From Candidatus Poribacteria bacterium (lineage in GTDB: Bacteria; Poribacteria; WGA-4E; WGA-3G): DNA of 64,000 nt. The position numbers were made by a program, and so were the translations under genes. The first letter of the stretch is position 1, and every line of letters starts with the position of its first letter. The stretch is from contig CAXXUA010000005.1 in the NCBI GenBank assembly GCA_963663765.2, forward strand, positions 928,001-992,000, given 5' to 3'. This document shows positions 3,494 to 23,871 of the stretch, in pieces. A model generated the notes under the pieces. It saw only the letters and a list, made by a program, of their open reading frames with translations, had not been told where the DNA came from and did not search any database.

Positions 3494-3595
3494 TACAACC
3501 AATCTCATAAATCGTAGCAGGTTTTTCTGACTTCGATTTACCGTACACGCGATTCGGTGAATTTGGACAAAATTACATTTATGAGATTCGCTGTA
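3494..3595. mobile_element. ~100-bp MITE-like element with TA ends
   Basis: TIRs TACAACCAATCTCATAAAT / ATTTATGAGATTCGCTGTA (17/19 match). Confidence 0.55.
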
Positions 3596-3607
3596 TAAAC
3601 ATCCATC

Positions 3608-3724
3608 AGGTGTGTAAAGTTCTCGGTATTAACCGTTCTTTCTTCTGTAGGAGGAACATCTTGGGCGATCCTATAGAAGAAGTATAATTCATGAACAAAT
3701 ATTTACCAAAATATTTACACACCC
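3608..3724. mobile_element. MITE, GGTGTGTAAA-ended family (second copy 19520-19863)
   Basis: TIRs AGGTGTGTAAA / TTTACACACCC, degenerate flanking direct repeat, internal GTAGGAG REP remnant. Confidence 0.55.
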
Positions 3725-3769
3725 TTCCATTAATTCTTTTGATAATCGGTTTGAATTGTGGTATACTTT

Positions 3770-3813
3770 TTTCTACTGTTTATAGGAAAAGTTTCTACTG
3801 TTTATAGGAAAAG
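3770..3813 (+). promoter_or_regulatory. Tandem 22-bp quasi-palindromic repeat, probable TA operator
   Basis: TTTCTACTGTTTATAGGAAAAG x2, immediately downstream of an extended -10 (TGGTATACT) and overlapping the antitoxin RBS region. Confidence 0.6.
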
Positions 3814-4050
3814 GTGGTAACTATGAAAACACTCGCTTTGGAGACCGATTATAAGATCAAATTACCTCTTGACTGGGTGAAAGAATTTGGGTTGGAATCG
3901 GGGATTGTAATTGAAAGGACAGATGATGGCATACTAATCCGTCCTTGCACTGTCCAAACATGGGACGAGGTATATGCCGAGAAACTCATTATCGGGAACA
4001 CTTCGGCATTGGACTTGTCCGAGGTAAGTGGTGATGACCTTATTTTCTGA
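3814..4050 (+). CDS. AbrB/MazE-type antitoxin
   Basis: 78 aa, KIKLPLDWVKEFGLE..IVIERTDDGILIRP swapped-hairpin pattern; overlaps the PIN gene. Confidence 0.75.
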   Translation: MVTMKTLALETDYKIKLPLDWVKEFGLESGIVIERTDDGILIRPCTVQTWDEVYAEKLIIGNTSALDLSEVSGDDLIF

Positions 4051-4624
4051 TCAGACCACACCGCGTGGTCTGGACGCGATGCTGATTGTCTACTCCTTGC
4101 TTGATGGGCATCCCGCATCCGCTGCGTGTGAGTCGTTCATCCGAGACCACTCCAGTTGGTTCACGACAACGCTTACGCTGCTTGAAGCAAAGGCAATTCT
4201 CTCAAAGGTTTATGCTATAGATGCTAGTCTTGCCTCACAACAGCTTACCCAATTTTCCACAGGTCCTATAGAAATTATTGAAGTAGACTTACCAATAATC
4301 CTTGAGGCGATGCAGATTGCTGATACTTTAAAAATTGACATCACTGATGCGGTTCTGGTGCAAGCAACACATATCCGTAGTGCTAACATCCTTGCAACTG
4401 ATGACCGTAAACTAATTCAAGCCTGCCATCAAATAGATATTAGAGTTGAAAATCCCATTGAAAATTCGCTACGTAGGCAAATGGCAAATTGTGAAGCATC
4501 AAACTTGCCGCAAAAAGGATTACCTTGCATTCTAAGGCGAATTCACCTTTGGCTGAATCAGAACCATCAACAAGTCGCCGAAGAATTCTGGTCTCAAACC
4601 GGCAGTGGAAGTCATCTACCCTAA
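4028..4624 (+). CDS. PIN-domain (VapC-like) toxin with C-terminal extension
   Basis: LDAMLIVY, LLE, DITDAVL and LATDD acidic PIN residues; ~50-aa extra tail. Confidence 0.8.
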   Translation: MVMTLFSDQTTPRGLDAMLIVYSLLDGHPASAACESFIRDHSSWFTTTLTLLEAKAILSKVYAIDASLASQQLTQFSTGPIEIIEVDLPIILEAMQIADTLKIDITDAVLVQATHIRSANILATDDRKLIQACHQIDIRVENPIENSLRRQMANCEASNLPQKGLPCILRRIHLWLNQNHQQVAEEFWSQTGSGSHLP

Positions 4625-4692
4625 TCCCTCTTACAATCATCTAAAAAATCTGACAATGCATTAACTTATCACATTTTCAACAGATTGCCAAC

Positions 4693-5328
4693 ATGAAAAT
4701 AATCGGAGTTCTACAGGTCATAACAGACACAACGTTTCAATCCAAATATACGCATCCGCAACTTGCGGAACTTGCAATACATGGTGGTGCAGACACAATC
4801 CAATTCCGACACAAAAACGGAACAACACGCGAATTGATTCAGATAGCACAGCAAATGCAGACGGTTTGTGCAAATCATGACGTGCCGTTGATTGTGAACG
4901 ATAGAGCGGACATCGCACTGGCAGTCGGTGCAAGCGGAACACATTTTGGACAAGATGATATGCCTGTCACCATCGGGCGGAAAATACTCTCTACAAAAAC
5001 CATCATCGGTGCATCAGCGCGTACCGAGGAGAAGATACTTGAAGCAATTACAGAAGGAGCAGATTATATCGGGTTTGGTCCCATCTATCAGACATCCTCA
5101 AAGCCTGATGCCGAAACACCGAAAGGGTTAGAACGTTTGCAACGCATGTGTGAAATAGCAAAATGTCCAGTGATTGCTATTGGTGGCATCACACTCCAAA
5201 CCGCTGCTGAAGTAATTGCCGCAGGAGCACACGGCATTGCAGTCATTTCTGCCGTATGCTCCCAACCCGATCCCCTCGCAGCAACACAACACCTCATGAA
5301 CGAAATCCAAGATGCCAAGCCAGCATAG
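4693..5328 (+). CDS. thiE: Thiamine-phosphate synthase
   Basis: IQFRHK, LIVNDRADIA, HFGQDD, GADYIGFGPIYQTSSK, VIAIGGI. Confidence 0.95.
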   Translation: MKIIGVLQVITDTTFQSKYTHPQLAELAIHGGADTIQFRHKNGTTRELIQIAQQMQTVCANHDVPLIVNDRADIALAVGASGTHFGQDDMPVTIGRKILSTKTIIGASARTEEKILEAITEGADYIGFGPIYQTSSKPDAETPKGLERLQRMCEIAKCPVIAIGGITLQTAAEVIAAGAHGIAVISAVCSQPDPLAATQHLMNEIQDAKPA

Positions 5329-5353
5329 AGACTGCACGAGGAATTAGCACAAT

Positions 5354-6862
5354 ATGAGCGAATACAATCAAGTTGATGAGCCTGGTATAAACACAATAGA
5401 ATTTATACCAAATGAATTTCGGGAAGTTAACCAAGTTTATGAACCAGATTTTGAGAAAATTGACGAAAATTTCGTGCAGAAATTATGGAATGGACAACGC
5501 TTTTTCAATGCAAACCTTACCGCAATTGACGGTAGAGAAATTCGCGTCCTTAAACAAGGTATCTGGAACCATGAAGAAGGTCCAGATTTTATGCACGCAG
5601 AGGTTGAGATCAATGGAAAACTCCATGTCGGTGACATAGAAATACATGTAAAATCTTCCGAATGGTACGCACATAAGCATCACCTCAATTCAAGGTATAA
5701 CCGCGTTGTTCTCCATGTGGTTCTCTATAATGATGACTTCAATTTACGAACACGACTACAGAATGGTAAACGCATATCAACACTGGAACTTCTCAAATGG
5801 ATAGATGCACCTATCGGGGACCTTTATGACGAAACAAAGCAGACAGAAACCGACGCAGCCAATTCCTGCAGAGTCACAGGCAATCGTCTAAACATAGATA
5901 GCCTTAAAAGCACATTTGAATCGTTAGGTACTGAAAGGTTCTTAGAAAAGTCGGATGCTATCCGACTTTTACGGACGCGTCTCGATTTTGAACAAATTCT
6001 ATATGAAGGTATAATGGAAGCGTTGGGGTATTCCCAAAACAGCAAACCACTGCGGGAGTTAGCACAGCGCGTGCCTTTTGCTGATTTGGATCATAAGTCC
6101 GAACACGAAATCCAAGCTATCCTTTTTGGCATTGCCGGTTTATTACCATCGCAATCAGAAAAACCAATACCCAATCATGTCAATGACGATCCGTTCATTG
6201 TAGCATTAGAGACACTGTGGAAAACATCGGAGTATGCAAAACGATCAGATCGCATGAACACAACTAAATGGCAGTTTGGAAGAATCCGTCCATATAACTA
6301 TCCAACAAGACGGATTGCAGCAATCAGTCAGTTGATCTTTCGCAGTAAAGGGAGTTTGATGTTGTACTTTCTCCCTATCTGTGAAAAGGCAGCAAATGTA
6401 GATACACCCAAACTGCTACGTACTATCAGAACCGAACTTCTTAACCTTTTGACCCTGGAACCCGCCGGTTATTGGGAAACACACGCTAACTTTGGGAAGG
6501 GTGGAACACAAAAAGCTAATCTGATTGGAGATGCCAGAGCTTTGGACATCAATGTGAACAAAATACTTCCTGTCGCATATATTTGGGCAGTAGAGTCAGA
6601 AAGCAGAAAACTACAAAATGCAATTCTGAGTCTCTACAGTTACTTTAGAAAAACGGACGAAAATAGTGTAATTCGCCAGGTGAAAGATCAGGTCTTTACA
6701 GATGCACAACCAATACAATTAATCAAACCTACAGCGCAGATACAGCAAGGGATCATTCGTCTCTACAAAAACTACTGCGCTGACCAACTTTGTGACTTAT
6801 GTCCTATTATTGAAAATAACGCGGTCTTGACAACAGAAAATTCTTACATTAAAAATTCGTAG
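5354..6862 (+). CDS. DUF2851 family protein
   Basis: N..GPDF..A, GDIEIH...SEWYAHKHH, YNRVVLHVV, RPYNYPTRRI and C-terminal YC....C..CP. Confidence 0.85.
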   Translation: MSEYNQVDEPGINTIEFIPNEFREVNQVYEPDFEKIDENFVQKLWNGQRFFNANLTAIDGREIRVLKQGIWNHEEGPDFMHAEVEINGKLHVGDIEIHVKSSEWYAHKHHLNSRYNRVVLHVVLYNDDFNLRTRLQNGKRISTLELLKWIDAPIGDLYDETKQTETDAANSCRVTGNRLNIDSLKSTFESLGTERFLEKSDAIRLLRTRLDFEQILYEGIMEALGYSQNSKPLRELAQRVPFADLDHKSEHEIQAILFGIAGLLPSQSEKPIPNHVNDDPFIVALETLWKTSEYAKRSDRMNTTKWQFGRIRPYNYPTRRIAAISQLIFRSKGSLMLYFLPICEKAANVDTPKLLRTIRTELLNLLTLEPAGYWETHANFGKGGTQKANLIGDARALDINVNKILPVAYIWAVESESRKLQNAILSLYSYFRKTDENSVIRQVKDQVFTDAQPIQLIKPTAQIQQGIIRLYKNYCADQLCDLCPIIENNAVLTTENSYIKNS

Positions 6863-15197: not shown

Positions 15198-15614
15198 TTA
15201 GTTTTTCCAATCCTCCAAACGCAATCCCAACTCAATTATTCTTTCGTAATCGGAATCAGAAGCAACAAGAATTGCATCAAGAGTTAAAGCTGTCGCAGCA
15301 ATCCAAAGGTCGCCTTCACCTAAAGGCGTCCCTTGTTGTTCAGCAGCAACTTTTATCTGTGCATAGACCTCGCTAACCCTCTCTGGAATTGGGTCACACG
15401 GAACTGTAGCAAATAGTTCATTTGCTCTTTGTTCAAGGTCTTGTTTTCTTTTTCCTGCGGGTAGTCGACCAATTCCGAATAGAATTTCACCCTTAACGAT
15501 GGGACAAGTAAAATGGTAATCCGACTCAGTCAGAGAATCAAAACGCCCTTTTACTCCAGGATTATCCTGCATCAACAAACTACATGTTGATGTATCCAAG
15601 AGATATTTATTCAT
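15198..15614 (-). CDS. vapC: VapC-family PIN toxin
   Basis: YLLDTS, GEILFG, GDLWIAATAL, LVASDSDY..I..L.LEDW. Start overlaps the upstream stop (TAATG). Confidence 0.9.
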   Translation of the reverse strand: MNKYLLDTSTCSLLMQDNPGVKGRFDSLTESDYHFTCPIVKGEILFGIGRLPAGKRKQDLEQRANELFATVPCDPIPERVSEVYAQIKVAAEQQGTPLGEGDLWIAATALTLDAILVASDSDYERIIELGLRLEDWKN

Positions 15615-18289
15615 TATTTATTACTTTTATCCGAATCAAAGGGCGAATCAAACTTTATAGGTATTTCCCCCTCTTTTATTGACTGATTGAGTGCTTCAAT
15701 GTCTCCATCAGTGAGATACGGTGGCTTATCCATCGCTTTGATGAGACGTTGTGCTGTAGGATTTTTTCTTTTTGTATGGTCCTGATTCTGATCTGATTCT
15801 GTCCAAGTGCGGAACTGCTGTAAAATTTCAGGTCCCACTCTGACTGAAACAGCGGGATGTACTGCAAGTAGAATCTGACCGATTTTTTTCTTACCAGTTT
15901 CACTACTCTTACAGACTTGTTCTATTTCTGGCACTGTAACCATAGGCATTTTTAATGCTGCGCGAAATTTTATTTTTTCAAGCCACTGTGCAGAAAGTAG
16001 TCCTGCTAAACCTGTCACAACAGGGTCTAGCCATGTTAATTTATTAATGACAGCTTGTGCAATGAATGCATGTGCATAAAAAAGGTGTTTTGGATCCGTT
16101 TTGCTATTATAAACGATCTTAAATGCTGCTACAAGCCGTTCCATAGGTTCGGTATCTTGTGCTTCTATCATTGTTAAAACGTTGTTTTGTTCTCTCAATA
16201 ACGTCGTTTCAATCAAATCAAGAGCAGAAAATACTTTTTCTTTTATAGGTAGTTCAGACGAATTTGTACGCCATATAGATAGCATTTCATGTGTATCACT
16301 GTCTGTCCGCATTCTAACAATAAGCGCAGCAATAAAAATTGCAATGATGTTATCAGCAGAGGCAAAGTCGGACAGATCAGAATTAGTTATAGGATAAGTT
16401 CCTTTTTCCGCAGCTCCTCTATCGCTTTGTTGGTGTTTCTTCATTGAACTAAATACTTGCGCTAACTGATATATTTGTTGTGGTAGATTATCAAAAGTCT
16501 TGTTTTTAAAATCATATTGTGCTTTAAGGATAACAAGGGAAAAGTCCAATATTGGATGTTTTTCTTTGTCTTTCATTTGTAAGGCATGTTGAAAAACTGT
16601 CGTCTCATGCCCAAATCTGTACTCAATTTGCGCTAAAGAGAGCCAAGAATATCCTATAGGAGAATCAGGTAAATCTAAAACTTTTTCGTTAGTCTCCGTA
16701 TTGCTACAGAAACCTGCAGAAGGTTCAGTAAGTTCTGAAGATTTATTTTCAAGTCCGCACCATATCATCCATATCCATTTTATAGTGTAATCTAATCGTT
16801 TCTTTAAAGTGAAATACTGAAGGTCTGTATTGTCTTGAGATAGTGTCTCAAAATCTCGCAACGCAAGATGCATAAATTTTATGCAGTTCAACATATTACC
16901 TGACTTAAAGTAAGCAAATCCCGCATCTGTATACAAACTGATATATCTTTCGGTGTTTTCAATCTCTTGAGTTTTATTAGCTCCCTCTTCAAAAAAGCGA
17001 GCTGCTTTCTTCCAATCGTCCAAGTAAGCTGCACATATAGCGGCTCTGCGATATTCCTCTAAGGGGCCAATGTTTACTTGACCTGAAGGTGGATTCCATT
17101 TTGGAAGAATACGTTCGTAAATATTGAGCGCGTCTTTGTAATGTTTCTGATTAAAGTATACGACTGCTTGTGCTTCTTCTATCGTTGGTAAAGTACCAAG
17201 TTTTAATGTAATATCTTGAAGAACTTTATGAGCGGTATTTGGGTCGCTCAATTTTTCGTCATGGGTGATGGCTTTAATTCTTGCTGATGCAGCAGCAATA
17301 TATGGATAACCCCATGCAATAGTTTTTTCAATTACTTTATCAAAAACTTCAAGGCATCTTGTCCAATTAGGATTTTCAAGTTTTTCCTCTGTTAACCAAA
17401 TTCCATTAATCAAAAGTTGGGATTCAATGTTATCATTCTCAAAGTCAGCCAATAATAACGTTCTAATTCTTGGATCAAGTTCATCCAGTGTATCAATAAG
17501 TTCATTGAGGAAAACAGCGTTGATTTCTGGACGCATATAGATAAAACTAAATAGGAAACTGAAATAGTTTGATTTTTTAATGTTGTATTCTTCCAATTGT
17601 CCCATGGAAATATGATATTCTTCCCAGAGCTCTTTATCCCTGTCTCTGATATCGATCATTTCTTTAAGGTAACCTACCAACTTCTTGGCTGGTAGTGTCA
17701 CTTGATTATATTTTAATATCTCTGTTGCCAGCATTAGACGAGATAGAAGATATGACTGGTGTGGTTCATAAGGTTTGGTTTCCTTATCCCAAATTTCAAG
17801 TATCTTTGGAACTAATTCTGGCTTCACCTCAACGGCAATGCGATATTGCATTGACCGAAATAGTTGATTTACAAACGCATAGCCAGGGAATAATTCTTCA
17901 GGAGGATTGGTTTTAATGTTTGTAATCCATGAGAATTCTTGACAAATATTTTCCCAATCATCCTCTGGAGCGGTTAGTAATGATCTTATGGCAGCTATAA
18001 TCCTTTCTTCATCTTGATCATGTGTGCTTTGTATTGGAGATTGGATAGCAATATCAGATAAACCACTAATAAATAACATATTAGTAGAATCAGGCAATTT
18101 AGTATGAGTCGCGTGCATACGCGGATGTTGTAAATACTGACTAGAAATCCTTTGTGTTGTTTGTTCCTCACCTTTCAGATAAAGGAATTCATCACCAGCA
18201 CAGTCTAACTGCACATTTGCAAGGACGACAAGTGGATAGTCCCCTTGTAAAGGATAATTTACTTGATGCATAGTATCTGCATGGTGCAT
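15614..18289 (-). CDS. Large TPR/alpha-solenoid protein with C-terminal antitoxin-like tail
   Basis: TPR-like segments (AVVYFNQKHYKDALNIYERIL; AAICAAYLDDWKKAARFFEEG; AGFAYFKSGNMLNCIKFM). Low GC. Start placed at the ATG at 18289. Confidence 0.65.
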   Translation of the reverse strand: MHHADTMHQVNYPLQGDYPLVVLANVQLDCAGDEFLYLKGEEQTTQRISSQYLQHPRMHATHTKLPDSTNMLFISGLSDIAIQSPIQSTHDQDEERIIAAIRSLLTAPEDDWENICQEFSWITNIKTNPPEELFPGYAFVNQLFRSMQYRIAVEVKPELVPKILEIWDKETKPYEPHQSYLLSRLMLATEILKYNQVTLPAKKLVGYLKEMIDIRDRDKELWEEYHISMGQLEEYNIKKSNYFSFLFSFIYMRPEINAVFLNELIDTLDELDPRIRTLLLADFENDNIESQLLINGIWLTEEKLENPNWTRCLEVFDKVIEKTIAWGYPYIAAASARIKAITHDEKLSDPNTAHKVLQDITLKLGTLPTIEEAQAVVYFNQKHYKDALNIYERILPKWNPPSGQVNIGPLEEYRRAAICAAYLDDWKKAARFFEEGANKTQEIENTERYISLYTDAGFAYFKSGNMLNCIKFMHLALRDFETLSQDNTDLQYFTLKKRLDYTIKWIWMIWCGLENKSSELTEPSAGFCSNTETNEKVLDLPDSPIGYSWLSLAQIEYRFGHETTVFQHALQMKDKEKHPILDFSLVILKAQYDFKNKTFDNLPQQIYQLAQVFSSMKKHQQSDRGAAEKGTYPITNSDLSDFASADNIIAIFIAALIVRMRTDSDTHEMLSIWRTNSSELPIKEKVFSALDLIETTLLREQNNVLTMIEAQDTEPMERLVAAFKIVYNSKTDPKHLFYAHAFIAQAVINKLTWLDPVVTGLAGLLSAQWLEKIKFRAALKMPMVTVPEIEQVCKSSETGKKKIGQILLAVHPAVSVRVGPEILQQFRTWTESDQNQDHTKRKNPTAQRLIKAMDKPPYLTDGDIEALNQSIKEGEIPIKFDSPFDSDKSNK

Positions 18290-18692
18290 TATCTTTCTCT
18301 CCCGACACAAACTAAATGGTTTACTCGGCAATTAATATTTGTATTTTGGACACCCTAAATTCACCCACCTTTATCCCCCTGAAAGCGAGGGGAAGGGACT
18401 TTTTGGTTTTTTCTGTCCGTTCTATATATAATAAAATATAATAAATGTTTAGCGAGTAAATCACTAAAGGGTGTGAAATTAGACATTATACAAACTATTT
18501 ATACATTGGCAACTTGAGTATATCACATTATCAGGCAAAAATCAAGACACCCTGCAGACTATATCTACTCCAAAATCAGATTCTCATACATATCAACTAT
18601 CCTTAAACATTAAGATTTCTTGATTTACTTAGCAAAATTATGTACAATATCTTATCAGTAACATGACAAATTCAAAGGCAAAAATGGAGGTC

Positions 18693-18887
18693 ATGATGAA
18701 GACTTTAGTGGTAACAGAAGAAATTTGGAAAGAGGGTAATATGTACACCGCCTATTGCCCAGAATTAGACGTTGCAAGTTGCGGAAAGGATATTGAAGAA
18801 GCGCGAAATAACCTTCTTGAAGTAATTGAAATTCAGTTAGAAGAAACAGCAAAACTCGGCACACTCAAGGCTTTTTTTAACATATAA
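18693..18887 (+). CDS. HicB-like antitoxin (short, orphan)
   Basis: IWKEGNMYTAYCPELDVASCGKDIEEARNNLLEVI; GGAGG RBS; upstream TTGATT/TACAAT promoter-like site. Confidence 0.8.
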   Translation: MMKTLVVTEEIWKEGNMYTAYCPELDVASCGKDIEEARNNLLEVIEIQLEETAKLGTLKAFFNI

Positions 18888-18982: not shown

Positions 18983-19004
18983 TTAGTCCCTCCTACACGT
19001 TTCG

Positions 19005-19212
19005 GAGAACGGTTTTACTACCTCATAATTGCTTTCGGTTCAGTAAACTGCCTTTTGCGAGTCATATTCTAAGACTTCAAGAAGTGTGACTCTCAACGTT
19101 TCATGCTATTCTTCCGTGTCCTTTCTTGACAAGGGACACCAGATACCTCTTGTATCCAACCGATCCACCACTCAACACGGCGTTGAATTTGAGCAGTATA
19201 GGATGCTTGCAT
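19005..19212 (-). pseudogene. HicB-like antitoxin pseudogene
   Basis: AGGAG RBS; MQASYTAQIQRRVEWWIGWIQEVSGVPCQERT, then a frameshift into EE*HETLRVTLLEVLEY with internal stops. Confidence 0.7.
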
Positions 19213-19282
19213 GACAATCTCCTATTGTTAATATTGATTTAGTGTTGTTGACGATTTTCTAAATTATACACGCTAATAATCC

Positions 19283-19484
19283 AAATCACGGATGACACAG
19301 ATGACACGGATAATACCACTACCAACGATTATCTTGCTTAGAAAACGCCTATCCTACGGAAGACAATCAAATGCAGAACTCTTATCCGCGCACTCCACGT
19401 AATCCGTGTAATCCGCGATTCCGAACACCCTCCGCACACTCCGCGTAATCCGCATAATCCGCATAATCCGCATAATCCGCGATT
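19283..19484. repeat. 9-nt periodic repeats arranged as an inverted pair (ACACGGATG... / AATCCGCAT...)
   Basis: CACGGATGACACAGATGACACGGAT faces AATCCGTGTAATCCGCGATTC and (AATCCGCAT)x3. Confidence 0.7.
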
Positions 19485-19519
19485 CTATACGGAAAAATAT
19501 ATACACACCCAAACATCAA

Positions 19520-19863
19520 GGGTGTGTAAAGTTTTTGTAAAAAGCTTGATATTAAAAGAAGTCCGTCCAGTTTCTATCAAATATTGCTTGACGTTAGGGA
19601 ACTGTGGACATCGTAGGGGCGAGGTTTCCTCGCCCGCATTAGCCTCTATTCGGGTGGGGAGACCCCGCCCCATAGGCGTCAATTTAAGAAAATATTGTTG
19701 TCATTTTTCTTGTGGGAGGGTTTTTCAACCTTGATTTGAGAGGAAAAGCGCATAAATTCGGGGTTGAAAACCCCTCCCACAAGAGGTCAAAATCCTTAAA
19801 TTGACGCTTATGGGGCGGGGAGACCCCGCCCCTACGGTACAGCAACCAAAACTTTACACACCC
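19520..19863. mobile_element. MITE with GGGTGTGTAAAGTTTT TIRs and 9-bp TSD (IS256-like ends), containing a nested MITE
   Basis: Perfect 16-bp TIRs; TSD AAACATCAA at 19511-19519 and 19864-19872. Confidence 0.8.
19671..19812. mobile_element. CATAGG-ended MITE (IS4-like ends) inserted in a REP hairpin
   Basis: TIRs CATAGGCGTCAATTTAAG / CTTAAATTGACGCTTATG; 19-bp duplication GGGYGGGGAGACCCCGCCC on both sides. Confidence 0.8.
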
Positions 19864-20054
19864 AAACATCAATCTTCGGTTGACCCAATGATAGAGTTTC
19901 GGTTATTATAATATATGTGTCAAATTTGGGATAGGCAGCAGCGTGAAAATGAATTACGGATTATCACAGTTTCGTAAAGTCAACACAGGTTAGTCATTTT
20001 GCGTTGAACCGTTCAGTCAAAATATATTTACGCAACTTACTTTATGAGGCAAAT

Positions 20055-21950
20055 ATGAAAAAACTAAACCTATATGTAATACTGATTTTTATCTGTTTTC
20101 ACCTTTTGTTAGCATATAGTTTTGCACAGGATTATACCCGTTTGCAACTACCAGAAGGAGCCATCGCACGTTTGGGAAAAGGAAAATTATTTGAGATAAA
20201 ATATTCACCCGATGGCAACCAAATTGCAGTTGCAACTGCAATCGGAATCTGGTTTTATGATACTGCTACCGGTGCCGAATTAGCACTCCTCACCGGACAC
20301 ACAGAGAGTATTGAATGCATTGCCATTAGTCCAGATGGAAAGACTTTGGCGTCAGGCAGCAACGACAACACCATCATGCTATGGGACATAGAGACACGCA
20401 CACGAAAAGCAACCCTTGTTAGACATTTAGATGATGTTCGGTCCCTTGCTTTCAGTCCAGATGGAAATACCCTCGCAAGTACCAGTGAAGATGCAACAAT
20501 TAATCTGTGGGACGTTCAGACTGCAAAACATAAAAGAACAATAACCGGACATGCCAATTGGGGTAGGGCAGTTGCTTTCAGTCCCGATGGAAGTATCCTC
20601 GCAAGTGCAAATCATGATGCTACCATCCGACTTTGGGACGCAAACACAGGAACACATCTAAGAACGTTCTCAGGACATGAACGAGCTGTAACCTCTATCG
20701 CCTTTAGTCCGGATGGAAAAACGATCTGCAGTGGGTGCGACGACGGCTCTGTCGGCTTGTGGGAAACAAGTACTGGCAAGAATATACAAATCATGATGAA
20801 GCATACATGGTACGTCGTTTCGGTCTCGTGTTCACCGGATGGAAAGACATTCGCAAGTGGTAGTTGGGACAATGAGATTTATATGTGGAACACCGAAACA
20901 GGTGAACATGTGAAGACACTATCTGGACATACAAATCATGTCGTATCGGTCGCATATTCACCGAAAGGTGACACGCTCGCAAGTGCAAGTTACGACGGTA
21001 CAGTTCGCTTGTGGCATCCTCGCACCGGCAATGAAAAAAATATATTTGTTGGACATACTCGTGATGTGAAAACTGTCGCATTTTCTCCTGATGGAAACAC
21101 ATTGGCAAGTGGAAATTCTGCAACCACCATACATCTATGGGACTCAACCACAGGTGCATATAAAAACACGCTTATCGGACACTCACAGACAGTTGGTGCA
21201 ATCGCATTTTCTCCCGATGGATCAACACTCGCAAGCGGTAGTTGGGATAATACGATTCGTCTATGGGATCCTCAAACCGGACGAGAAAAACAGGTAATCG
21301 CTGAACATTGGAATAATGTCGCATCAGTAGCTTTTTCCCCTGATGGCACCATGCTCGCGAGTGGAAGTTATGACCAGACAGTCCGTTTATGGAACGCACA
21401 CACAGGTGAACCCTTGCAGACACTCAATGGACATATTGCTAATGTTAGGGCTGTCGCATTTTCACCTGATGGCAAGACACTCGCAAGTGGCGATGGAGCT
21501 AACAAAATCCTCTTTTGGGATCCAAAAACAGGACAAACGCAGTTGATGTCGTCTGTTCAACGCATACTCAATAGACCTGTGATGCATTCTGGGGATATTA
21601 CGGGACTCGCCTACAGTCCTGATGGATCAACACTTGCAAGTGCAAGCGATGACCAAACAATCGGTTTATGGAACGCACAAACAATGAAAAATAAACAGAT
21701 GTTACGTGGACACACAAGGTATGTCTTATCTGTGGCTTATGCGCCGCAAGGAGATATGATCGCAAGCTGCAGTTGGGACAAGATTATACGTTGTTGGGAC
21801 CCAAAAACTGGAAAGCACAAAACCGGGTTCATTGGACACACTGGCTATGTCTTGTCGGTTGCGTTCTCACCTGATGGAAAACTCCTCGCAAGTGGAAGTT
21901 CTGATGGAACGGTGCTATTATGGGATATGTCAAAATTAAAAACCAAATAG
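20055..21950 (+). CDS. Secreted WD40-repeat protein
   Basis: Signal peptide, LPEGAIARLGKG leader, many GH...FSPDG..LASGS.D..LWD repeats. Confidence 0.93.
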   Translation: MKKLNLYVILIFICFHLLLAYSFAQDYTRLQLPEGAIARLGKGKLFEIKYSPDGNQIAVATAIGIWFYDTATGAELALLTGHTESIECIAISPDGKTLASGSNDNTIMLWDIETRTRKATLVRHLDDVRSLAFSPDGNTLASTSEDATINLWDVQTAKHKRTITGHANWGRAVAFSPDGSILASANHDATIRLWDANTGTHLRTFSGHERAVTSIAFSPDGKTICSGCDDGSVGLWETSTGKNIQIMMKHTWYVVSVSCSPDGKTFASGSWDNEIYMWNTETGEHVKTLSGHTNHVVSVAYSPKGDTLASASYDGTVRLWHPRTGNEKNIFVGHTRDVKTVAFSPDGNTLASGNSATTIHLWDSTTGAYKNTLIGHSQTVGAIAFSPDGSTLASGSWDNTIRLWDPQTGREKQVIAEHWNNVASVAFSPDGTMLASGSYDQTVRLWNAHTGEPLQTLNGHIANVRAVAFSPDGKTLASGDGANKILFWDPKTGQTQLMSSVQRILNRPVMHSGDITGLAYSPDGSTLASASDDQTIGLWNAQTMKNKQMLRGHTRYVLSVAYAPQGDMIASCSWDKIIRCWDPKTGKHKTGFIGHTGYVLSVAFSPDGKLLASGSSDGTVLLWDMSKLKTK

Positions 21951-21966
21951 ACTAAAGAGTGTGATT

Positions 21967-23871
21967 ATGAAAAACCTAAAATGCATTACGCTGCTAATAA
22001 TCGTTGTTTGTCTAATATCGGGAACATTCTGTTATTCCCAAGAATATACAAAATGGCATTTACCTGAAGGGGCAAAACAACGTTTTGGAAAAGGAATTAT
22101 AAGAGAAGTCGCATTTTTCCCTGATGGGAAAAAACTTGCTATCAGTAGTTCAATCGGTATCTGGATTTATGATGTAAATACAGGTGAAGAACTTGATCTG
22201 CTTACAGATAGTTGGCACGATACCGATTCAATTGTGATTAGTCCGAAAGGTGATATACTCGCAACTGCAATTGGAAACAAAGTCCAACTGTGGAATACAA
22301 CCGAAAAGAACCTAATTGATACATTCATAGGACACAGATCTGATATTTATTCATTGGCAATGAGTTCAGATGGGAAAACACTCGTAAGTGGAAGTGCTGA
22401 TACGACTATTCGAATATGGGATACAACGACAGGAAAAGCAGGTTCCGCACCTATAGTAAACACCGAAGCCGTCCGTTCATTGGCATTTTCACCAGCAGGG
22501 AACACACTCGTAAGTATATCAGAAACGGATGAAAGCACAATACAATTATGGAACTTAGACAGCGGAGAGAATGTGTTAAATATCTTTCCAAGGATAGGCA
22601 GAATCTATTCAATTGCGTATTCTCCAGAGGGTTCCATAATAGCCACTGGAAGTTGGAACGGTAGAATCCATTTATGGAATCCGAGTACTGGCGAACTCCT
22701 AAACACCTTATCAGAACATGCAAGCCGTGCAACGACATTAGATTTCTCACAGGATGGCAAATACTTAGTCAGTAGCGGATTAGACTTTAGAATAAATGTG
22801 TGGAATTTAGAAACCAATATGTTGGTGAATACATTCAGAGACGTTTCAATTTTCTTCAATAATGTTGCCATTTCACCTGATGGCAAACTGATAGCCGGTA
22901 CAAGTAGTTTAAATGGGGTAATTCGCTTGTGGGACATGCAGACCGGGAACATCGTTAAAACCATCACTGGACATACAAAGTACATCAGATCCGTCGCGTT
23001 TTCACCAGATGGAGCATCTGTCGCTTATCCCAATAGAGTTGATAACGTCATCATTCTCCGGGATGTCCAAACTGGAGAAATACAAAAAACACTAACGGAA
23101 GGGACAGGTACACCCTATTCGGTTATGTTTGCACCTAATGGTGAAATACTTGCATCGGGTAATTGGTATGGACAAATCGTTTTATGGAATGTGCAAACAG
23201 GAGAACCAATAAAGAGACTCATTGGACATACAAGGAATGTACCTACCCTTGCATTTACGCCTGATGGATCAACACTGATAAGTGGCAGTTGGGACTATAC
23301 AATCCGATCTTGGGATGTTCAAACCGGTGTTGTCAAAAAAGCAATCCCTGTATATCAGTCAAATATTGATACGGCCAACTACAAGGTACAATCCATAGCC
23401 ATCAGCCCAGATGGTAATACATTCGCCTACGCCTCTGAGGCACAAAATATACGGTTATGGGATATACTCATGAAAGAACCAAAAGAAGAGCTAATAGGAC
23501 ATAACGGAGCTGGCGCAAGCGTTGCGTTTTCTCCAAATGGAACTATCCTTGCAAGTGGTAGTTTTGACGATACTGTAATAATTTGGGAAGCAGAAACTGC
23601 GAATCTGTTAAATACCTATAGAGAACCAACTTCATATAACGTTTATAGTGTTGCGTTTAGTCCAGACGGCGACACAGTTGCAGGTGGTAGTAATAAGGTT
23701 ATACGAATGTGGGATACCATGACAGGAAAAAACATGCTATCACTAACAGGACACACAGATTGGGTGCGTTCTGTTACATTCAGTCCTGATGGTCGTACCC
23801 TTGCCAGTGCATCTTCAGACGGCACAGTGATTCTTTGGGATGTGTCTAATAACCTACACACAAAAAACTGA
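21967..23871 (+). CDS. Secreted WD40-repeat protein
   Basis: Signal peptide, LPEGAKQRFGKG leader, WD40 repeats. Confidence 0.93.
   Translation: MKNLKCITLLIIVVCLISGTFCYSQEYTKWHLPEGAKQRFGKGIIREVAFFPDGKKLAISSSIGIWIYDVNTGEELDLLTDSWHDTDSIVISPKGDILATAIGNKVQLWNTTEKNLIDTFIGHRSDIYSLAMSSDGKTLVSGSADTTIRIWDTTTGKAGSAPIVNTEAVRSLAFSPAGNTLVSISETDESTIQLWNLDSGENVLNIFPRIGRIYSIAYSPEGSIIATGSWNGRIHLWNPSTGELLNTLSEHASRATTLDFSQDGKYLVSSGLDFRINVWNLETNMLVNTFRDVSIFFNNVAISPDGKLIAGTSSLNGVIRLWDMQTGNIVKTITGHTKYIRSVAFSPDGASVAYPNRVDNVIILRDVQTGEIQKTLTEGTGTPYSVMFAPNGEILASGNWYGQIVLWNVQTGEPIKRLIGHTRNVPTLAFTPDGSTLISGSWDYTIRSWDVQTGVVKKAIPVYQSNIDTANYKVQSIAISPDGNTFAYASEAQNIRLWDILMKEPKEELIGHNGAGASVAFSPNGTILASGSFDDTVIIWEAETANLLNTYREPTSYNVYSVAFSPDGDTVAGGSNKVIRMWDTMTGKNMLSLTGHTDWVRSVTFSPDGRTLASASSDGTVILWDVSNNLHTKN

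Follow-up and report, generated by a model that had tools for sequence, protein, structure and literature searches.

An 891-residue receptor remnant directly upstream of vapC in a sponge-associated Candidatus Poribacteria bacterium, with a C-terminal tail proposed as the VapC antitoxin

The DNA analyzed here, called the window throughout, is a stretch of 64,000 nucleotides (nt) from the 6.35-Mb genome of a sponge-associated Candidatus Poribacteria bacterium (assembly GCA_963663765.2, contig CAXXUA010000005.1, positions 928,001 to 992,000 of the forward strand). On its minus strand a gene for a toxin of the VapC type follows a large open reading frame (ORF) of 891 amino acids (aa), and we propose that the end of this large protein serves as the VapC antitoxin. 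The two ORFs are arranged as an initial annotation, made from the letters alone, had described them: VapC lacks a small upstream antitoxin, the large ORF stands in its place, and the two overlap in a TAATG. The stop codon TAA of the large ORF (15616-15614) shares these letters with the ATG of vapC (15614-15612), implying that translation of the two genes is probably coupled. No small antitoxin gene was found between the large ORF and vapC, and minus-strand ORFs of at least 40 aa are absent there except for overlapping alternative frames. The locus contains the following features, in which STAND denotes signal transduction ATPases with numerous domains, TPR tetratricopeptide repeat, AF2 AlphaFold2 and dN/dS the ratio of nonsynonymous to synonymous substitution rates.

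15198..15614, minus strand: vapC, 138-aa PIN-domain RNase toxin, from the ORF list and Pfam
15612..15616, minus strand: TAATG stop/start overlap of the large ORF and vapC, read from the sequence
15614..18289, minus strand: large STAND-derived TPR-like ORF ending in the putative antitoxin tail, 891 aa, stop codon included
15617..15772, minus strand: putative antitoxin tail, aa 840-891, with helices at 844-852 and 861-873 and then a conserved IPxxFDSPF end
15773..15793, minus strand: polar disordered linker, aa 833-839, AF2 model
15794..18013, minus strand: all-alpha TPR-like solenoid, aa 93-832, AF2 model, dN/dS 0.26-0.31
18014..18289, minus strand: N-terminal remnant, aa 1-92, predicted to be disordered, leftover of a Cap4-like nuclease region, dN/dS 0.61
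18297..18303, minus strand: Shine-Dalgarno-like GGGAGAG, 8-14 nt ahead of the start codon at 18289
18485..18512, minus strand: promoter-like TTGCCA-16-TATAAT, a consensus match only, at 11 of 12 positions

An alternative in-frame TTG start at 18331 would extend the large protein to 905 aa. Across the region as a whole, promoter-like sites are not in excess. The low GC content that had been remarked for the large ORF is real, at 0.34-0.39 across 15500-18500 versus 0.42-0.50 in the flanks. The frame through the linker and the tail is identical and free of indels in public-run contigs of two studies, and the junction of body and tail is covered by the contigs X1 record 2 (15403-17180), X2 record 12 (15659-17558) and X3 record 20. 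A search of 5.8 billion proteins returned 436 relatives of the large protein, and among the best 120 of them, to which the counts of relatives below refer, 118 carry the tail, in long as well as in short forms, while the two exceptions stop just before it. The fusion is thus neither an assembly artifact nor a chance feature, and the accidental or assembly-only fusion that the initial annotation had allowed for can be discarded.

VapC matches the Pfam PIN family (E = 9.9e-12), and its nearest NCBIfam models are those of tRNA(fMet)-type VapC, with matches below their cut-offs. Among 49 VapC homologs, E43, D102 and D122 never vary, D120 hardly varies and position 7 holds either D or E; the profile of these homologs matches solved VapC/FitB toxins in the Protein Data Bank (PDB), namely 6nkl, 3zvk, 2h1o (FitB) and 3tnd (tRNA(fMet)-specific VapC). 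Its dN/dS is 0.15-0.17 (Nei-Gojobori). VapC is presumed to be toxic here. PADLOC gave zero matches for VapC, the large protein, the tail and a neighboring HicB-like ORF.

The tail is not confined to the large protein. Homologs of the window's VapC occur in 89 of 176 Poribacteria genomes, and 60 of the 118 listed places away from receptor genes were examined. Where VapC is at least 52% identical to that of the window, a tail homolog is found in 50 of 51 loci (tblastn E of 5e-5 or better), and in those 50 loci it closes an ORF whose stop lies between -20 and +14 nt from where VapC begins; at the nine more distant VapC loci (31-39% identity) no tail is detectable. The carriers at VapC loci are small proteins with AF2212-like, DUF2281-like, DUF4926 or HicB-like N-termini. 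More widely, the tail was found on 144 of 1.84 billion cluster representatives, mostly 40-160 aa long with the tail at the C-terminus, and Pfam assigns AF2212-like to 8, DUF4926 to 4, RHH_1 to 3, DUF2281 to 3, TPR to 2, DUF433 to 1 and HicB-like to 1 of 135 tail representatives. The tail is also matched by 282 small proteins (33-105 aa), and the few names among them read 'hypothetical protein [Candidatus Poribacteria]' and, once, 'primase-polymerase-like protein'.

Tails that precede VapCs of 75-91% identity, whether on AF2212-like, DUF4926, HicB-like or receptor proteins, are 56-80% identical to the window's tail, and those preceding VapCs of 54-63% identity are 31-47% identical to it. The type of tail therefore tracks the type of VapC and not the N-terminal domain (Mantel r = 0.77, reached by 0 of 2000 permutations), a correlation that is confounded by shared ancestry. 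In the 6.35-Mb genome, only one match of the tail profile is real, the large ORF itself (E = 3e-29), and the next lies at E = 0.54. No Pfam or NCBIfam model covers the tail, and against PDB sequences its profile found only a low-complexity repeat match (6h9l) and noise. The tail also closes an unrelated protein of 589 aa that has 13 canonical TPR_1 repeats and stands upstream of a VapC with 57% identity to that of the window (L093, 166-2348); it is an independent TPR-tail fusion, with a 247-aa relative, P0249. The distribution and the modeling described below support the tail as a portable VapB-type antitoxin module of this VapC subfamily, and the tail family was previously unannotated.

In co-folding, VapC was paired with the last 60 aa of the large protein. 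The scores were 0.78, 0.76 and 0.76, compared with 0.21 for the best control; 116 of 157 solved complexes attain the mark used, as do 2 of 215 mismatched pairs. The runs share at least 93% of their contacts, and the pLDDT (predicted local distance difference test) of the partner is at least 70. The contacts on VapC fall at residues 8-9, 12-17, 43-51 and 99-101, beside D7, E43 and D102, and those on the tail side at residues 9-44 of the 60-aa segment, that is, aa 840-875. These models support binding of the tail beside the active site of VapC. The co-folding check proposed with the initial annotation (0.76 versus 0.21 for the best control) thus came out in favor of its impression by eye that the tail resembles an antitoxin, and so does the finding that small proteins encoded just before VapC end in the tail.

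The remainder of the large protein was modeled with AF2 (mean pLDDT 73, predicted template modeling score 0.68). Residues 93-832 form a confident all-alpha solenoid followed by coil, and the tail helices (844-852 and 861-873) are short and of low confidence. A Foldseek comparison with the PDB found only generic TPR superhelices (such as Ski3, Ctr9, designed CTPR and OGT); their TM values are 0.1-0.2, and Avs sensors are absent from the matches. In the ESM Atlas, the scores of 0.87-0.89 all belong to generic TPR clusters and are under the lead level of 0.9. Pfam gives a sub-threshold TPR match only, at aa 374-435, and NCBIfam returned nothing significant for either the large protein or the tail. 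The original description of a TPR/alpha-solenoid protein is therefore upheld by the model, as is that of a protein lacking an NTPase, since neither a Walker A motif nor an NTPase Pfam match was found in it. The statement that the tail has no Met of its own is correct for the start of the tail; however, there is one within it, at aa 853.

The relatives reveal where this protein comes from. In length, 56 of them have 1400-1494 aa, 35 have at least 1495 aa, 15 have 879-898 aa and 14 are of other sizes, and the few source names attached to relatives read 'Candidatus Poribacteria'. The long forms consist, in order, of a Cap4-like nuclease (Cap4_nuclease in Pfam), a STAND NTPase (nSTAND3/NACHT/NB-ARC matches at aa ~307-540), ~800 aa of helical repeats including the ~740-aa TPR-like solenoid, and the tail; forms of ~1505 aa bear an additional N-terminal DUF4926 (E = 2e-20). 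Residues 92-891 of the window's protein align without a gap to aa 631-1430 of the long form P0005 at 80% identity, so that the solenoid (aa 93-832) is collinear with aa 631-1370 of the long STAND forms. In addition, aa 32-79 align to aa 231-284 of P0005, and the NTPase region (P0005 aa ~285-630) is missing. From these two matches, the 891-aa protein is a long form in which a pair of in-frame deletions has taken out the entire NTPase and the greater part of the nuclease. Every long form (91 of 91) has a Walker A motif, compared with 0 of 15 short forms, and the N-terminal junction sequence is common to all 15 short forms, whose clusters are 59-73% identical to the window's protein. The sequence comparison thus supports an NTPase-less and effector-less derivative of a STAND receptor that is not itself a STAND/Avs member.

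The suggestion of a STAND-derived protein that had lost its NTPase and effector is borne out by the gapless alignment and the Walker A counts. The accompanying idea that a toxin-antitoxin (TA) module had replaced the lost effector finds no support, because the tail and VapC are already found with full-length relatives that have a Cap4-like nuclease and whose Walker A is intact; the pair is therefore shared with full-length receptors. A second genome has a short form with VapC (L007), and the window's genome has a single copy of the large protein. The short forms do not cluster together when the C-terminal 800 aa are placed in a tree, and the most recent common ancestor of all 15 takes in the whole set of 117 tips; some short and long forms have identical 3' ends, for example P0004 and P0020, whose last 100 aa are the same. 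This mosaicism suggests frequent recombination between alleles or paralogs.

A survey starting from the receptors recovered 48 long STAND matches in the 176 Poribacteria genomes. At 29 of these places a VapC homolog (72-91% identical) begins no more than 11 nt from the end of the tail, and all 29 STAND genes are uninterrupted into the tail. Among the 19 places without an adjoining VapC, three genes are uninterrupted (G097, G133 and G152), one has a shortened tail (G041), and the remaining 15 are either interrupted or stop at ~aa 836-850. Thus, VapC directly follows 29 of 32 intact fused receptors, in three families of the phylum, and adjoins none of 14 receptors that end before the tail.

Selection is strongest at the end of the operon. 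The dN/dS (Nei-Gojobori) is 0.12-0.14 in the tail, compared with 0.26-0.31 in the body and 0.61 in the N-terminal remnant, making the tail and VapC the most constrained parts; around the linker it reaches ~1.3, from only 20 codons (821-840). Between two short forms, the body has a dN/dS of 0.31 and is under purifying selection, and the 15 short-form clusters hold their length at 879-898 aa.

Five classes of derivatives, the window type being one, retain the native start and stay in frame up to and through the tail, a count that is biased because out-of-frame deletions are harder to recognize. In L115, the first 14 aa are joined to aa 909 onward (545 aa), and in L116, DUF4926 is joined to aa 940 onward (587 aa); VapC is intact in both. 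P0241 joins 73 aa of the nuclease to the tail in a protein of 130 aa, and mini-proteins of 132-168 aa join DUF4926 to the tail with native start and tail kept. L120 has the same join as L116, and its deletion runs into VapC: at 678-2423 the end of the tail continues in frame into the 19 C-terminal aa of VapC, so that the toxin is destroyed and one long ORF is kept.

We propose that these genes together make up a VapBC-like toxin-antitoxin pair of type II, in which the last ~50 residues of the 891-aa protein would be the antitoxin. Both proteins would be made from one operon by coupled translation, and the tail, with its two short helices and the IPxxFDSPF end, would cover the active-site groove of VapC and keep the RNase silent. 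The ancestor would have been a Poribacteria STAND receptor composed of an optional DUF4926, a Cap4-like nuclease, a NACHT-like NTPase, the ~740-aa solenoid and the tail. Because the antitoxin is translated last, a nonsense or frameshift mutation anywhere upstream of the tail would free VapC, and the toxin would therefore hold the upstream reading frame open, which we call a frame lock. Such a lock, which we infer, would explain both the intact 891-codon ORF in a crippled receptor and decay mainly by in-frame deletions. From sequence and modeling, it is highly probable that VapC is neutralized by the tail of the co-translated 891-aa protein; the whole explanation, including the receptor remnant and the frame lock, is in our judgment the best available and moderately probable. 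For the full-length family we tentatively suggest an NLR-like receptor that leashes free-standing TA toxins, with the tail for VapC and, in the ~1505-aa forms, DUF4926 for DUF6883, where trigger-driven oligomerization would free up to two RNases and fire the DNase; the tail would also act as a frame lock, and the NTPase-less form would be a simplified, trigger-responsive sensor-antitoxin.

Several observations weigh against the neutralizing tail and the frame lock. The large protein is missing an antitoxin DNA-binding domain for autoregulation, unlike classical VapB, and no RHH, AbrB, HTH or PHD domain was matched in it by Pfam or NCBIfam. The co-fold result may partly reflect likeness to solved VapBC complexes, and 10 of 15 stand-alone tail loci examined lack VapC, showing that tails also persist as orphans. 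VapC is kept with only a 16-aa remnant of the tail in L055, the exception among the 51 loci, and in L114 (frameshift) and L118 (insertion) VapC is intact while the tail could come only from a 3' ORF with a TTG start; given these three loci, the frame lock is evidently not absolute. The constraint on the body and its kept length argue, as far as sequence can tell, that the body is more than a spacer. This last point would be met by a sensor-gated toxin, the kind of system suggested in the initial annotation. Worked out further, the solenoid would still bind a phage or stress ligand; this binding, or a conformational change or proteolysis arising from it, would detach the tail from VapC, which would then cleave tRNA and abort the infection. 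For the full-length forms, oligomerization driven by the NTPase would have the same effect, and it would in addition trigger the fused Cap4-like nuclease and, where DUF4926 is present, set free the DUF6883 RNase. In favor of such gating are the purifying selection on the body, the 15 short-form clusters that keep the same junctions and length at 59-73% identity, the unrelated TPR protein that independently carries the tail upstream of VapC (L093 and its relative P0249), the antitoxin-type modules at both ends of long forms, each adjoining its toxin gene, the retention of VapC beside 29 of 32 intact fused receptors, and the precedents of CapRelSJ46 (PMC9712102) and of proposed ParA-sensor TA systems (bioRxiv 10.64898/2026.10.19.760177). 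However, the NTPase switch and the nuclease are lost in the 891-aa copy, the N-terminus of which is predicted to be disordered, and neither a PADLOC match nor a structural match to a known Avs sensor was found. The tail and VapC also persist behind very different body remnants or none (P0241, the mini-proteins, L115 and L116), and the body is therefore not needed for neutralization; their retention in several deletion derivatives would fit a plain addiction pair equally well. Moreover, given the short/long mosaicism, recombination with long alleles that are functional may account for the low dN/dS of the body. Sensor gating as a whole is therefore regarded as doubtful, and gated release by the window's own copy as having somewhat less than an even chance.

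The same evidence bears on two further explanations. If the tail had another role, such as a localization or oligomerization peptide, its adjacency to VapC would be a legacy of gene order and VapC would be neutralized otherwise or be inactive. The lack of any Pfam, NCBIfam or PDB family covering the tail agrees with this, as do the orphan tails and the two loci (L035 and L036) in which a separate tail ORF precedes a CAP12/Pycsar-type Toll/interleukin-1 receptor (TIR) protein instead of VapC. It is nevertheless very improbable in view of the 50 of 51 loci in the survey that started from VapC, the co-fold that passes its controls, the invariant or nearly invariant catalytic residues and low dN/dS of VapC, and a genome that has no other tail and no small upstream antitoxin for this VapC. 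Alternatively, both genes could be a decaying relic on the way to loss, neither expressed nor active, in line with the truncated receptor, its relaxed N-terminal remnant and a neighboring HicB-like ORF that is truncated relative to that of L004. Such decay is very improbable: neither ORF is broken, constraint is highest in the tail and VapC, 15 protein clusters have the short form, which also occurs with VapC in a second genome, and a promoter-like site and a Shine-Dalgarno-like motif are present. The reading as a VapBC-like pair on a receptor remnant is thus the one we retain, with neutralization by the tail as its firmest part.

Other genes were observed around the receptors, whose surroundings look like a defense island. 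A DUF6883 gene of 116 aa (E = 4e-29) overlaps the start of DUF4926-type receptors by 4 nt (L003 at 3536-3886, L034 and L038), and DUF6883 lies upstream in three of the three DUF4926-type receptor loci that have upstream DNA. With VapC downstream, receptors of ~1505 aa therefore sit between two RNase toxin genes, with the matching neutralizing module at each terminus. A type III restriction-modification pair (Mod and Res) follows VapC at L004 (8889-13106), and N-terminal fragments of the same methylase stand right after VapC or the tail at L002, L023, L039-L041 and L053, as if one ancestral island had eroded repeatedly. One clade of receptors stops short of the tail; here a separate tail ORF of 64-66 aa directly precedes the TIR protein of 304-313 aa (L035 at 4509-5645 and L036 at 4569-5684), assigned to the CAP12/Pycsar type by Pfam in L035 and by sequence likeness in L036; an AAA_15/AAA_21 ATPase follows the separate tail ORF in L037. 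The N-terminal half of the L035 TIR protein was considered as VapC-like and showed no profile similarity (hhalign probability 0.2), and the large frame of L110, a candidate TPR fusion, turned out otherwise.

In the window, the neighbors of the vapC operon are a phosphoglucomutase-like gene and a HicB-like fragment. The latter is a 74-aa HicB/UPF0150-like ORF (18663-18887, plus strand; weak Pfam match) divergent from the large ORF. Its homolog in L004 (2089-2403, minus strand) has 104 aa, so the 74-aa copy looks C-terminally truncated, and no HicA partner was seen. An ordinary VapBC-like pair is present at 3814-4624 on the plus strand, formed by a 78-aa ORF (3814-4050), AbrB/SpoVT-like by eye only, and a PIN ORF (4028-4624); the PIN match lies at 4073-4423, and a Pfam search of the genome itself gave 11 PIN matches in total. 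Further features are a 9-bp tandem repeat TCCGCATAA of 5.6 copies at 19431-19480, inside ~1 kb (~19000-20000) without a long ORF, and two adjoining WD40 beta-propeller proteins of 648 and 636 aa with hydrophobic N-termini at 20004-23871 (plus strand), the first identified by Pfam and the second by reading of the sequence.

The architecture joins toxin-antitoxin modules to NLR-like receptors, with a portable antitoxin peptide on the end of the receptor and the toxin next door. If the peptide only neutralizes VapC, this would be a clear example from nature of a toxin that guards an upstream reading frame against disruption, and, if true, a new way for addiction modules to stabilize costly defense genes that explains their decay by in-frame deletion. 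If instead the receptor gates the release, it would show that receptors acquire detachable effectors from TA systems. The 891-aa copy is a degenerate member and the full-length family is the more striking object; the tail could also help in annotating orphan VapC genes of Poribacteria.

In comparison with known systems, the pair resembles VapBC in its PIN toxin with conserved acidic residues, in an antitoxin directly upstream with overlapping stop and start codons, and in a C-terminal antitoxin segment placed, here by modeling, over the active site of the toxin. The upstream-antitoxin gene order is common to 29 STAND loci and 50 small-antitoxin loci, and small relatives of the tail have RHH, AF2212-like or DUF2281-type N-termini like ordinary VapB-type antitoxins. 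It differs in that the antitoxin segment ends an 891-aa TPR-like protein (1430-1510 aa in relatives) without a DNA-binding domain. The relatives share with Avs and other NLR-like STAND proteins the order of an N-terminal effector (the Cap4-like nuclease), a P-loop NTPase and C-terminal TPR-like repeats, of which the 891-aa protein keeps the repeat region; in contrast, this protein has neither NTPase nor effector, only the disordered 92-aa remnant, and no PADLOC match, and the family adds antitoxin-type modules at one or both ends beside free-standing toxin genes. A STAND receptor with an antitoxin tail, or this tail family, was not found described in the full-text literature, a search that did not extend to supplements.

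According to a 2026 preprint, DUF6883 is a BECR-fold RNase toxin (BECR-Tox3) with DUF4926 as its conserved downstream immunity partner (bioRxiv 10.64898/2026.08.28.747851). Accordingly, the DUF6883 gene overlaps the start of ~1505-aa relatives whose first domain is DUF4926; the pair is missing at the window's copy, and DUF4926 of the relatives is part of a complete receptor chain, unlike a small gene placed downstream of its toxin. ParA-sensor systems that captured TA units (bioRxiv 10.64898/2026.10.19.760177) and systems with the DUF397 TA toxin as a recruited co-effector (PMC7159879) couple an NTPase with a TPR/NACHT sensor to a type II TA pair, and they are proposed to unleash the TA toxin on sensing. 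They consist of three separate genes around a ParA (or vWA-MoxR) core, whereas here the antitoxin is fused to a STAND terminus, and no ParA/SIMIBI NTPase stands beside the TA pair, there being no NTPase domain in the vapC operon. CapRelSJ46 (PMC9712102) is similar in carrying on a larger polypeptide an antitoxin element that could double as an infection sensor for a tRNA-targeting toxin. CapRel combines toxin and antitoxin in a single polypeptide, with the antitoxin domain itself as the sensor, whereas VapC here is a separate ORF in another frame and the antitoxin peptide sits on a separate putative sensor domain.

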